Shown in pieces: positions 19,897 through 45,470 of a DNA stretch of 64,000 nt. The notes under the pieces were generated by a model that was not told the DNA's origin, searched no databases, and saw only the letters and a list, made by a program, of their open reading frames with translations. The stretch lies in the NCBI GenBank assembly GCA_025823825.1, contig GCA_025823825.1_4720.1, one strand, 5' to 3'. Origin of the DNA: a phage. Each line of letters begins with the position of its first letter. The stretch's first letter is position 1. Position numbers and translations under genes: made by a program.

Positions 19897-19989
19897 GATG
19901 ATTTCCTTCTTTATTAGGATGATTACGTTTAGTCAGTTTAACGGCATAAACCCTTCCTGCCTTACGCAGGAAGGGCATACGGATTTGTT

Positions 19990-41265: not shown

Positions 41266-42285
41266 TTACACCGCCACCTTGGCCTTGATAGCGGGGTGTG
41301 ATTGATATCCGACGAACACAAAGTCTTCGTAACGGTAATCCGTAATACTTTCTGGTTTACGTACGATTGTTAGCTTCGGTAATGGATACGGCTCACGACT
41401 AAGTTGTTCTTTAACCTGTTCGAAATGGTTGTGATAGATATGACAATCTCCACCTGTCCACACGAACTCACCAACGTCCATATTCAACTGCTGGGCAAGC
41501 ATGTGTGTTAACAACGAATATGAGGCGATGTTGAATGGTGTTCCAAGCAGTACGTCCTGCGATCTTGCTAGCAGCATACACGACAAGGCACGTGTTGGTA
41601 CGTTATGCGCATTCAACCAAAGTTCCGTTTCACTGTGTCGTACATCATCCGTAACCCACTGGGTTCTTAATACGTCGTTGCGTTGAACATAATCAACACG
41701 TTCATCGATCGTGAGCTCGTGGGTATAGAACTGATAGAAACTGTGGCATGCGGGAAGCGCCATATCGTCTAAATCACCTACGTTCCATGCGCTAACGATG
41801 ATTCGTCGAGAATCAGGATCTTCTTTAAGCTGGCGCATCACGTTTGCAATCTGATCGTGATGTTTAACATACACGAGGTGTTTTAGCGTACCGTCATTAA
41901 GAATGCCGCAATACTCGTAACCACGCTGCATCAACTCACGAGTACGCTCTGTATCGTGCGGAACAACCACTTTGTAGTCTATCCATTCCCGCCACTGTCT
42001 ACCGTAAATCGGTCCTAGATTCCCTTCTTCGTCAGCCCACTCATTCCAGATACGAACACCGTTATCTTGAAGATACGCAACATTTGTGTCGCCGTTAAGA
42101 AACCAGAGCAGTTCGTGGATAACGCTCTTAAGGTGAATCTTCTTGGTGGTTACCAGAGGGAATCCTTTCTTCAGGTCAAAACGCATTTGACGTCCAAATA
42201 CGGAACGGGTACCGGTACCTGTACGATCGGCTTTATCGCGACCGTTATCCATGATGTCTTGCAAAAGGTCCAAATACTGTTTCAT
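41266..42285 (-). CDS. thyA: thymidylate synthase
   Basis: Motifs [65 protein letters not shown]. Confidence 0.9.
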
Positions 42286-42558: not shown

Positions 42559-43539
42559 TCAGTAACAGTTATAATGGGTTCCAAGCCGCTCCGGTTTTCT
42601 CAGAAGACTATCTTTAAGCGGTACGACGTCGATATCAACGTTTTCTGAATAATAACCATTAGAACTACCATACCAACGAATAACAACACATCCTTTTGCT
42701 GTACGAATATGGTAAAATGTCCATCGCGTACGTTTGCAAAAGTCGTCATCCTCGTCTCTTTCCTCGGTTCTTTCTTCAGCGCTAAGTATCTTCTCACCAA
42801 TAATGTCGTTAAGATCGCCATCGATGTCTTCAAGGTACACTTTTTCACAGCAATCTTGCTTATGGCAGAATTCAACAACGTTCCCATCGCCCCGATAGAA
42901 AAGAAGGGCAATGCTGTATTGTAGCTGTTCGGCCGTTAAGTCTGTCGCGCAATACAAACTTTGATCTTCGGTTATCACCAAGACATTGTTGATTACGTGT
43001 CCGGCAAGCGCTCCGATCTTATTTACCGTGATAATCGGACGAACGGGTTCAGGTTGAACGATCGGAATACGAACACAACCAATTAAGGCCATCCGTCCTT
43101 TCTTTGGTCTAACCGCAAGGTAAGGTGATTTTCTTGGGTGGTTATGCAGACGTATTTCTAATTCGTCAAATTTAATCCCGTATATACCTAAGAAACGATC
43201 GAACAACCGATGAAACTCATCTGTTGCTTCTTTCAACGTTATGGTGTCTACCGTGAGTTTATGTCCCCTGAACACCCGGGTTATATCGATAACGTCGAGT
43301 GTTTTAAAATGTATTTCCGTAAGGGGGTGATTTGTATTTTCCAGGTATGTAATGGTTCTTTGAACCGCGATTTTAGGTGACGCACCTTTAAAACGTTTCA
43401 GGTATTTAACACGATAGCGTGTATGATCTGATGTTAACATTTTAATCTCCTCTCCCGACTTCAGAGAATTCTTAAAATCCGTTAGTTTTGATAGATGAGG
43501 TAAGACGGCATAAAAGCCTCCCGTAATGGGAGGCTTCAT
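42559..43539 (-). CDS. hypothetical protein (326 aa)
   Basis: Minus-strand ORF. Confidence 0.5.
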   Translation of the reverse strand: MKPPITGGFYAVLPHLSKLTDFKNSLKSGEEIKMLTSDHTRYRVKYLKRFKGASPKIAVQRTITYLENTNHPLTEIHFKTLDVIDITRVFRGHKLTVDTITLKEATDEFHRLFDRFLGIYGIKFDELEIRLHNHPRKSPYLAVRPKKGRMALIGCVRIPIVQPEPVRPIITVNKIGALAGHVINNVLVITEDQSLYCATDLTAEQLQYSIALLFYRGDGNVVEFCHKQDCCEKVYLEDIDGDLNDIIGEKILSAEERTEERDEDDDFCKRTRWTFYHIRTAKGCVVIRWYGSSNGYYSENVDIDVVPLKDSLLRKPERLGTHYNCY

Positions 43540-43547
43540 TAATCAGC

Positions 43548-44096
43548 TTATTTCACAAGAACAGCGAATTCGAGAACATGAATAGCTTCATCGTCCATCG
43601 GATTTGTCGTGGTATAACCAACGAAGCAATAGCCCATATCCGCGATAAACTCGCTAAGTTTATCGATGACTGATGCCCCGATACGATCGTTAACAGACAG
43701 GCGACATTTACGGGTTATGTTTTGCCCGCGAGGAACGCCAGCTAACACGGATAGGAAATGTACGATCCGGTTATTGGTTGCGAACTGCTTGAAATCATCG
43801 TAGTGCTTAAGGTCTTTCATCGCAGACTCTACCGTCATACGACGACCAGGCGACACATACTCAGAATAAGAATAAGCTGCAATCGTGCGGCGGTCTTCAG
43901 TGAGGTAAGTATTCCCTTCGGGATGATAACTCTCGACTGTTCCGTCTTCATAGGTGACGGTCACAACAGGTGCACCGTACTCGTCGCGACCGAAATCAAT
44001 TTTACATTTATCCGAAAGCGGTAGAACCGTGCAAGGTTTTGCGTTGTTCTCATCAGGGAGATCGTAACCACTCATCATTTTCAAGAACATAGACAT
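43548..44096 (-). CDS. hypothetical protein, paralogue family member A (NNAKP N-terminus)
   Basis: Shares DxNNAKPxT N-terminal block and C-terminal ...EFAVLVK-type block with 44183..44716 and 44793..45125. Confidence 0.5.
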   Translation of the reverse strand: MSMFLKMMSGYDLPDENNAKPCTVLPLSDKCKIDFGRDEYGAPVVTVTYEDGTVESYHPEGNTYLTEDRRTIAAYSYSEYVSPGRRMTVESAMKDLKHYDDFKQFATNNRIVHFLSVLAGVPRGQNITRKCRLSVNDRIGASVIDKLSEFIADMGYCFVGYTTTNPMDDEAIHVLEFAVLVK

Positions 44097-44182
44097 AATA
44101 GAACCTCATGATAATAGATAATAGAAATGATAGATAGTACAACAAATTGAGGGGGTATTATCCCACCCCCTCGCAGGGATTA

Positions 44183-44716
44183 CTACTTAACGACCACGAT
44201 GATTTTGCCACCCGCACCGGCGTAATATGCCGTTAATTCACCAGTAAACAACTCTTGTAAAAGACGATTTACGTTACTAACAAAGTTAGGATTGTCTGAT
44301 TTTACAAACTCGATATTGCGCGTTTGTTTTATATCACGATCGATTAAGCGTATTTCCAACAACGCACAAATAAGGCGATCGTCAAGTTTACCACTTGCAT
44401 CCAGCACTTCTCCATACTTCGTAGCACGGACGTCTGCATACATACGGTCAACATCATCCTTCCCAAAACCACAGGAATAGGCGTACGTTGCGATGGTATT
44501 ACCATTGTCCATCACATAAACGTTACCGCCTGGGTAATCGATGAATCGTTGATCCTTATCACCATGAGCGACGAACTCCAGTGTCGGTCTACCTAGTGAA
44601 TCGCGATTGAATTCGATTGTGGTCAAACGGTCAGGCACCACATGCAATGTAAACGGTTTCGCATTGTTACGATCGCTAGTATCGCAGTTAGCCATTACTT
44701 TTACAATAACACTCAT
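44183..44716 (-). CDS. hypothetical protein, paralogue family member B
   Basis: MSVIVKVMANCDTSDRNNAKPFTL... ending ...GKIIVVVK. Confidence 0.5.
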   Translation of the reverse strand: MSVIVKVMANCDTSDRNNAKPFTLHVVPDRLTTIEFNRDSLGRPTLEFVAHGDKDQRFIDYPGGNVYVMDNGNTIATYAYSCGFGKDDVDRMYADVRATKYGEVLDASGKLDDRLICALLEIRLIDRDIKQTRNIEFVKSDNPNFVSNVNRLLQELFTGELTAYYAGAGGKIIVVVK

Positions 44717-44792
44717 GTTTATTCCTTAGTAGTCCTAGTAGTAGTAGTATTGAGGAATTTCACCTCATTAGATAATCAACTTTGGTAATGTT

Positions 44793-45125
44793 TTACTGAA
44801 ACAAGACATTAAATTCGACGAGATACCCATCGGATCTATCACCACGATATCTGTTGCAGAAAACACCGAATTTCATCAAGAACTCACATAACTCTTCGGC
44901 TTTGTATAGCGGAATACGATTTTCGTCGAGCAGGGGGCACTTATGGCTAACCCGCTCCGACGAATCAACGCAACACAAATAAAGAAGGAATCGAACAATA
45001 GCTCGGTTCTTAGTGAAGCTCTCGAATTCACCTGCAGTTCTGAACTCATCGAGGAGCTTTGTCGTTTTCTTCAATCGTTCACGATCGAGCATGTTAACCC
45101 CAATACGAGCATAACCCTCCTCCAA
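44793..45125 (-). CDS. hypothetical protein, paralogue family member C (C-terminal module only)
   Basis: NRAIVRFLLYLCCVDSSERVSHKCPLLDENRI...GYLVEFNVLFQ aligns with the C-terminus of 43548..44096; start uncertain. Confidence 0.45.
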   Translation of the reverse strand: MEEGYARIGVNMLDRERLKKTTKLLDEFRTAGEFESFTKNRAIVRFLLYLCCVDSSERVSHKCPLLDENRIPLYKAEELCEFLMKFGVFCNRYRGDRSDGYLVEFNVLFQ

Positions 45126-45155
45126 CCCATCAGGGAAGGAGGAGGGAATATGCTG

Positions 45156-45470
45156 TTATTCTGTTTTCGGTGTTGAACCGTTCTTCTTGAAGTCGGATTC
45201 GTATTTCACGTTAGAATCGAGAACCTCACGAACGGTTTTATCCGTACAACCACGAGCGATGTATGCATTAAGATCATCACGTAATTTACGCATCGTTGTT
45301 TTATCCGCATCAGAAACATCTGACTTGGTAAGACGGAATGCGATTGCATCGCGAATTTTATTCAACGTTGCTGGGTTATTACGCTGTTCTGCAAATACCG
45401 CTTTGATGAATGTACCGCTATCTTTCGAAGCGACAGCTGCATCAAGAATCTCAATATGCTTTTCAGACAT
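45156..45470 (-). CDS. hypothetical protein (104 aa)
   Basis: Minus-strand ORF. Confidence 0.45.
   Translation of the reverse strand: MSEKHIEILDAAVASKDSGTFIKAVFAEQRNNPATLNKIRDAIAFRLTKSDVSDADKTTMRKLRDDLNAYIARGCTDKTVREVLDSNVKYESDFKKNGSTPKTE

Follow-up and report, generated by a model that had tools for sequence, protein, structure and literature searches.

Why a phage should carry three small, adjacent and partly similar genes, and what their products might do, is the question raised by positions 43,548 to 45,125 of a 64,000-nucleotide stretch of phage DNA (GenBank assembly GCA_025823825.1, contig GCA_025823825.1_4720.1; this whole 64-kb stretch is referred to here as the window). The 2.1-kb stretch around the array shares 97.6% identity with Escherichia phage vB_EcoM_Goslar (MK327938). 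This member of the Chimalliviridae, a nucleus-forming jumbo phage, serves as the E. coli model for such phages, and most of its early genes are without a known role. The array consists of gene A (43548..44096, 182 residues, the orthologue of Goslar gp143), gene B (44183..44716, 177 residues, the orthologue of Goslar gp144) and gene C (44793..45092, 99 residues, unannotated in Goslar). A is composed of an N-terminal domain (N-domain) and a C-terminal domain (C-domain), B of an N-domain and a diverged C-terminal half, and C of the C-domain only. An earlier note on this DNA had described the three open reading frames as duplicated, diverging early genes of an arms-race locus; going beyond that note, the array and its neighbours all lie on the minus strand, the shared N-terminal block belongs to a widespread autonomous domain, and C is a C-domain-only gene that the reference annotation does not contain.

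The similarities within the array extend well beyond the short blocks by which it was noticed. The motif M-x4-K-x-M-x3-D-x2-D-x-NNAKP-[CF]-T is exact in A (MSMFLKMMSGYDLPDENNAKPCT) and in B (MSVIVKVMANCDTSDRNNAKPFT), and this shared block lies within a similarity covering residues 1–81 of the two proteins (29/81 identities, 36%; BLASTP E=1e-13). Likewise, the endings EFAVLVK in A and EFNVLFQ in C are the tail of a domain of ~90 residues common to both proteins (BLASTP E=6e-8), for which alignment of orthologue profiles with hhalign gave a probability of 97% and E=3e-11. B and C show no sequence similarity to each other (E=47). The A/B and A/C similarities far exceed chance and short motifs, and alignments limited to short motifs, the outcome that would have spoken against the earlier note, were seen in neither the pairwise nor the profile comparison. 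With support from both BLASTP and hhalign, A, B and C are true paralogues that were duplicated and then diverged.

The N-domain of A (residues 1–80, 43857..44096) is acidic and predicted to be a seven-stranded, all-beta domain of the PHROG 10337/10807 type, and its C-domain (residues 81–182, 43551..43856), found in Goslar-like phages only, is predicted to be alpha/beta with the element order H-H-H-E-H-E-E (H, helix; E, strand). The N-domain of B (residues 1–82, 44471..44716) was delimited by BLASTP against A and by its matches to phrog_10337 and phrog_10807, while the C-terminal half of B (residues 83–177, 44186..44470) is predicted to have the element order of the A C-domain with undetectable sequence similarity. 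Orthologues of A (n=36) are 67–98% identical, Goslar gp143 having 97% amino-acid identity, and together with those of B (n=89) they show intact reading frames across more than 120 orthologue clusters. The anatomy and evolution of the array are well established: a tandem, cassette-like array combining a widespread autonomous N-domain with a lineage-restricted C-domain. Tandem diverging paralogues in jumbo-phage accessory regions are a familiar kind of feature, and the phiKZ proteins orf93/162/163 form a multi-copy paralogous jumbo-phage family (PMC12676376).

All three frames are present where the earlier note had placed them, except for the beginning of the third. The start given by the open-reading-frame finder, TTG 45125, lies inside the stem of the upstream hairpin, while an in-frame ATG at 45092 gives a protein of 99 residues, is preceded by GGAGG in relatives, and is the start behind the 99-residue proteins reported by gene callers in the related contigs L003–L007 and L025. 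For these reasons, C most likely starts at ATG 45092 and not at TTG 45125. In Goslar, the annotated gp145 (window 44943..45176, plus strand) overlaps C on the opposite strand. Against five relatives the minus-strand frame of C has a ratio of nonsynonymous to synonymous divergence (dN/dS) of 0.05–0.16, the plus strand opposite C contains 4–8 stops in every frame in relatives, and a 99-residue orthologue (P0170) exists in the protein library. Since C is under purifying selection, the plus strand is interrupted and the orthologue exists, we conclude, as far as sequence can tell, that C is a real gene and gp145 a probable wrong-strand mis-call. The reference annotation would be corrected by this reading, as gp145 hides a conserved gene of 99 residues. 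C has no PHROG match. An apparent N-domain remnant upstream of C was judged spurious, the tblastn extension to 45149 running into the terminator hairpin.

The N-domain has a life of its own outside this array. A profile built from the A, B, Erwinia and Proteus sequences and from D, a fourth paralogue present in relatives, recovered 45 homologues (E 2e-31 to 4e-4), which are mostly 75–115 residues long and consist of the N-domain alone. The N-domain of B matched phrog_10337 (E=1.9e-7) and phrog_10807 (E=5.4e-6), and that of A did so more weakly (0.0015 and 0.0097); the stand-alone homologues cover the whole of phrog_10337 (E 1e-7 to 2e-14), and one of them, P0040, matched Goslar gp143 by tblastn at 1e-13. 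Phrog_10807 is the 379-residue Agricanvirus form, of which the first ~80 residues are the N-domain. Both PHROGs are without an assigned function, and both are without the Goslarvirus-specific C-terminal half that A, B and D add. Thirty-eight phage records contained the N-domain by tblastn, including Acinetobacter Obolenskvirus (~45 kb) and, among chimalliviruses, Agricanvirus, Phabio, Viktualia, SA002 and Proteus phage 10; 201phi2-1 gp34 was found via the Phabio protein and by Foldseek. The domain starts at Met1, the inspected sequences all falling within 0–5 residues of that position. Its conserved positions, taken from alignments of 7 and 62 sequences, are K6, D15, K20, F35, R37, G61-N62-x-Y64, T71 and A73 in the numbering of A, and it is acidic, the isoelectric point being 4.4 for A and, as the median of 44 stand-alone members, 4.8.

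The chimalliviruses examined all have the N-domain at the N terminus, as in A and B, with a different extension behind it in each and total lengths of 173–379 residues. These homologues, all annotated as hypothetical, are Erwinia phage Special G gp201 and its RAY counterpart (379 residues), 201phi2-1 gp34 (228), Phabio gp456 (173), Viktualia CDS0221 (187), Salmonella phage SA002 MGA_204 (334) and Proteus phage 10 QMP24040 (239). In contrast to the Goslar-like tandem array, the other chimalliviruses have a single copy, the genomic position of which differs, and their extensions are unlike the Goslar C-domain. A profile of the A C-domain and C, searched in full with HMMER against 1.84 billion representative proteins (1.84e9), returned four matches, only A and C orthologues and none of these extensions; because of this, the A/C-type C-domain appears to be confined to Goslar-like phages.

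Family and structure searches gave little beyond these relationships. Nothing significant was found for A, B, C or the N-domain family in Pfam, NCBIfam or PADLOC; neither domain family is represented in these collections, the N-domain being found only in PHROGs without function. When 62 family members were compared with Pfam, scattered sub-threshold matches to Tcp10_C (three members), MORN_2 and WG_beta_rep were obtained, and as a weak hint these beta-hairpin repeats may reflect a beta-meander, not homology. A literature search, within the library that could be searched, found no paper discussing Goslar gp143/gp144, 201phi2-1 gp34 or PHROGs 10337/10807. The AlphaFold2 model of A (predicted local distance difference test score, pLDDT, 92; predicted template modelling score 0.79) has predicted strands at 3–8, 22–27, 31–37, 43–49, 54–57, 63–67 and 70–75, followed in the C-domain by H83–94, H99–106, H109–119, E127–132, H141–153, E157–164 and E172–181. 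The model of B (pLDDT 83) shows the element order of A in both halves, the C-terminal one being predicted as H86–97, H100–107, H113–124, E133–139, H143–156, E161–166 and E171–176. Comparison of the C-terminal halves of B and D with the A/C domain by hhalign was not significant; the models suggest that the C-terminal half of B is a diverged copy of the A C-domain. Foldseek against the Protein Data Bank (PDB) gave no solved structural neighbour below E=0.026, a profile search of PDB sequences gave nothing credible, and a fold search of BFVD returned only uncharacterised chimallivirus homologues. No enzyme or nucleic-acid-binding signature was found in scans of Pfam and related families, and no membrane segment or signal peptide was visible in the sequences.

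We further analyzed how the locus varies among close relatives, in most of which the gene order is latch–C–D–B–A–DUF7448. D encodes a protein of 198–201 residues in which the N-domain is followed by a C-terminal half diverged past recognition by sequence; D is present in L003–L007, L025 and L026, that is, in most relatives examined, and is missing from the window, Goslar and L002. D and A are collinear over 175 residues (BLASTP E=7e-18), with the score coming mainly from the N-domain; no relatives of D were found in IMG/VR. In L003 and L005 the D cassette is flanked on both sides by a hairpin with ATTA(A)CTACT direct repeats, whereas the D-less window and L002 contain a single copy of this element. 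Since the D-less genomes keep one repeat copy, the presence or absence of D reads as a clean recombinational gain or loss. With D and the DUF7448 gene both variably present among close relatives, the locus is a plasticity hot spot. Within the window, tblastn of A, B and C detected no extra copies of either domain elsewhere.

The array is also fast-diverging. Compared with L003, genes A, B and C are 65–69% identical in DNA with nonsynonymous divergence (dN) of 0.21–0.29, whereas the adjacent capsid latch gene is 92% identical with a dN of 0.012, so that in dN the protein-level divergence of the array is ~20 times that of its neighbour. The change is distributed unevenly: column entropy among orthologues was 0.59 in the C-terminal half against 0.29 in the N-domain of A, and 0.39 against 0.13 in B, which makes the C-terminal halves two to three times as variable as the N-domains; their dN is 2.5–7 times higher (for A against L005, 0.055 in the N-domain and 0.134 in the C-domain). 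At a dN of 0.02–0.08, the N-domain is under strong purifying selection. The dN/dS ratio was 0.16–0.35 for A and 0.19–0.37 for B, with synonymous divergence saturated, and stayed below 1 in every comparison, reaching its maximum of ~0.40 in the C-terminal half of B. The N-domain is the constrained part and the C-terminal half the fast-evolving part, and all three genes are under purifying selection.

Variation of this kind could in principle reflect drift, at a recombination hot spot, of duplicated cassettes that are largely without function, as the presence/absence of D, the high divergence and the cassette boundaries at repeats might suggest. Such drift is disfavoured by purifying selection, with dN/dS at 0.05–0.37 over saturated synonymous divergence, and the intact frames in the orthologue clusters, the detection of RNA and peptides (below) and the confident structure predictions all make it a very remote prospect.

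Expression data from Goslar place A and B in time. RNA sequencing at 30 min post infection recorded ~850–970 raw reads each for gp143 and gp144 (bioRxiv 10.1101/2023.09.20.558163, Sup. Table 2). When ChmA was knocked down in the same study, the log2 fold changes were +0.11/+0.22/−0.10 for gp143 and +0.14/+0.15/−0.05 for gp144, compared with about −4 (~16-fold down) for the major capsid protein gp41, which together with most structural genes fell by 3–7 log2 units. By the logic of those authors, nucleus-independent transcripts belong to the early programme that is expressed from the EPI vesicle (bioRxiv 10.1101/2023.09.20.558163). As their transcript levels are independent of the phage nucleus, gp143 and gp144 fit the behaviour of early-class genes, and the early timing that the earlier note had guessed holds for these two, with changes between −0.10 and +0.22 under blocked nucleus formation.

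Both proteins are also made. Liquid chromatography–tandem mass spectrometry of purified virions detected three peptides of gp143 (an estimated ~7 copies per virion) and two of gp144 (an estimated ~2), in a preparation for which ~170 copies of PhuZ and ~126 of chimallin were estimated (10.64898/2026.04.21.720040, Table S4). Since these copy numbers lie far below those of the contaminants PhuZ and chimallin, the peptides prove translation and not virion membership. The same detection is nevertheless what one would expect if the proteins were virion-associated, with the N-domain as a module for packaging or for binding to the capsid or virion, by which a variable C-terminal cargo would be brought into or onto the particle, and the array does adjoin the capsid latch gene. 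The genomic surroundings of the homologues can be read in this way as well: in Acinetobacter Obolenskvirus the stand-alone homologue follows the portal and head genes, further stand-alone homologues are flanked by head-completion and tail genes or are found a short way upstream of terminase, and the 201phi2-1 and Viktualia homologues lie beside tail tube and sheath genes. Conversely, neither late, nucleus-dependent transcription nor stoichiometric presence, by which a virion protein would be recognised, was found for gp143 or gp144, the transcription of which is unlike that of the major capsid protein and most structural genes. The two proteins are unmentioned in the cryogenic electron microscopy model (10.64898/2026.04.21.720040), and the GenBank note of 201phi2-1 gp34 is without a mass-spectrometry identification, although its neighbours gp32 and gp36 have one. 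We regard a virion role as distinctly unlikely.

A precedent for the layout of the array does exist among Goslar virion proteins, where the paralogues of the DUF7941 family combine an N-terminal module that is conserved with C-terminal parts that vary (10.64898/2026.04.21.720040). The array resembles this family in having several diverged paralogues per genome built on such a plan. Unlike DUF7941 proteins, A and B are of the early class and not among the modelled virion proteins, and the genes are in tandem and not dispersed. None of A, B and C has a Pfam match to DUF7941 or DUF7448, the latter matching only the neighbour at 42559..43440.

Across nine contexts, no conserved neighbouring gene was found for the stand-alone N-domain genes. 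In Pseudomonas prophages the gene heads the late operon, after a non-coding gap of 0.5–0.9 kb and before a holin-like gene. In one of these prophages (L010, 7001..8344), the N-domain gene comes first after a gap of ~0.85 kb behind NinG and a 225-residue gene, directly precedes a holin-like protein with three hydrophobic segments, and has, ~0.8 kb downstream of it, a gene whose product gives a Pfam match to the Acb2/Tad1-hairpin family. A gene that is early in a lytic phage, as in Goslar, and at the head of the late operon, a moron position, in prophages might act in inter-phage competition or superinfection exclusion, possibly with toxicity to the host; cassette-like units with their own hairpins, gained and lost by recombination at short repeats, would suit such a role. 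However, the sequences show no membrane segment or signal peptide and match no toxin family, and we consider this explanation unlikely.

A different possibility is that the proteins perform phage-internal housekeeping in replication, transcription, RNA handling or nucleus-associated functions. The strong purifying selection on the N-domain is in keeping with this, as are the homologues in many chimallivirus genera (Goslar, Agricanvirus, Serwervirus 201phi2-1, Phabio, Viktualia, SA002, Proteus phage 10) and the nucleotide-metabolism genes near the array, which encode a thymidylate synthase and an Rv2179c-like exonuclease. Yet temperate Pseudomonas prophages and ~45-kb Acinetobacter phages carry the N-domain by itself, with no partner gene conserved, neither tblastn nor Foldseek detected a homologue in phiKZ, and the number of paralogues varies among near-identical phages. 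The N-domain is acidic, and the scans described above gave neither a nucleic-acid-binding nor an enzyme signature. Housekeeping is in our view an improbable role.

Taken with the early class of gp143/gp144, the small size and acidity of the proteins, the lack of an enzyme signature, the autonomy of the N-domain, the patchy presence of the genes and the concentration of change in the C-terminal half argue for A, B and C being dispensable early host-interaction proteins, active in host take-over or counter-defence; we favour this as the simplest reading, at a probability of roughly 0.4. On this reading, the proteins would act by stoichiometric binding and not by catalysis. Because it occurs alone in small phages, the N-domain, conserved and acidic, would be the part responsible for core binding, and the lineage-specific C-domain would provide or adjust a further surface for interaction or oligomerisation. 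Each paralogue might then serve for other variants of the target, and C, as a free C-domain protein, might act separately or pair with A.

Known inhibitors provide a frame for such a role. Anti-CRISPR (Acr) proteins, Ocr/ArdA and the Acb/Tad inhibitors are small, acidic, early, patchy in distribution, fast-evolving and without enzymatic motifs. A and B are like them in size, acidity, early class, accessory distribution, rapid evolution and lack of enzymatic motifs; in sequence and fold, the array proteins show no similarity to Acr, Ocr/ArdA, Acb, Tad or Gad proteins, and an aca-type regulator was not seen at the array. A more specific form of the host-interaction reading makes the N-domain a new autonomous fold family of inhibitors, of the counter-defence or host take-over type, which nucleus-forming jumbo phages would have in common with temperate Pseudomonas prophages and ~45-kb Acinetobacter myophages. 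The Goslar-type array (C–D–B–A) would be its specificity-diversified version, in which the C-domain retargets the binding module and free C modulates it. This seems to us possible but doubtful.

Several points weigh against host interaction as the function. In sequence and fold searches, none of the characterised proteins of anti-defence or host take-over turned up as a homologue or a structural counterpart, and a recognisable anti-defence gene lies near only 1 of ~10 stand-alone contexts. Several of the stand-alone genes in small phages are in or next to morphogenesis modules, which also fits a virion-related role. Diversifying selection is not demonstrated, dN/dS being below 1 throughout. 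The preference for binding over catalysis derives from the absence of enzyme signatures and is to be read as provisional, and the putative homology of the C-terminal half of B to the A C-domain derives from the order of predicted secondary-structure elements. Thus, of the arms-race locus that the earlier note had proposed, plasticity and rapid divergence stand, while dN/dS of 0.05–0.40 and the lack of similarity to defence or anti-defence families leave the arms race itself plausible and unproven. The locus offers a compact, testable set of candidates, with three genes here, four in most relatives examined, and natural gain/loss variants, and if the N-domain does bind a host or defence target, this would be informative for numerous unrelated phages as well.

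The earlier note had also described the three genes as separated by GC-rich stem-loops, and this is accurate at three sites on the minus strand but not between C and B. The GC-rich hairpin after A (43514..43536), read from the sequence, is AAGCCTCCC-N5-GGGAGGCTT, then TTTATGCCG; that after B (44149..44172), found in a hairpin scan, is intrinsic-terminator-like. Both are terminators in the Goslar annotation and are conserved in relatives. The hairpin between the latch gene and C (45115..45146; CCCTCCTCC...GGAGGAGGG), also conserved in relatives, holds the spurious TTG. The spacer between C and B (44717..44792), the site of D in relatives, contains only a weak 4-bp hairpin (44752..44766). More widely, intergenic GC-rich hairpins often directly precede TTATGC(C/T)G, for which we counted 11 matches against 3.6 ± 1.9 expected, with sites at window positions 19942, 32927, 43506, 51480, 55581 and others, and the hairpin that lies upstream of gene C has a variant, TTATGCTC, behind it. 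The hairpin and TTATGC(C/T)G may together form a combined terminator and TATG-type promoter element, putatively comparable to the phiKZ late promoters.

The upstream neighbour of the array is the capsid latch gene (45156..45470, minus strand, 104 residues), the orthologue of Goslar gp146, which was recently shown to be a capsid 'latch' protein (bioRxiv 10.64898/2026.04.21.720040). With nucleus formation blocked, gp146 is not down-regulated (log2 fold change +0.1 to +0.4), in contrast to the major capsid protein and most structural genes, which fall in the same table; gp146 appears to be a virion gene of the nucleus-independent class. Directly downstream of A is the DUF7448 gene (42559..43440, minus strand, ~293 residues; Pfam E=2.4e-24), which adjoins A both in the window and in every related contig, while Goslar is without a DUF7448 gene there. 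Among relatives, the C-terminal half of its product falls into two or more diverged versions (L003 versus L004/L005), and a 326-residue frame beginning at ATG 43539 probably extends too far, into the terminator hairpin.

Draft assemblies labelled Salmonella, E. coli, Shigella and Enterobacter often contain Goslar-like contigs of 235–250 kb, yet the array locus had no match in 5,426 complete E. coli genomes, which suggests that these contigs represent carry-over or carrier-state phage in the sequencing of isolates and not integration. Downstream of the array, the thymidylate synthase gene (41266..42285, minus strand) encodes 339 residues. A typical bacterial ThyA has ~264 residues, and the window protein, being clearly longer, may contain insertions.

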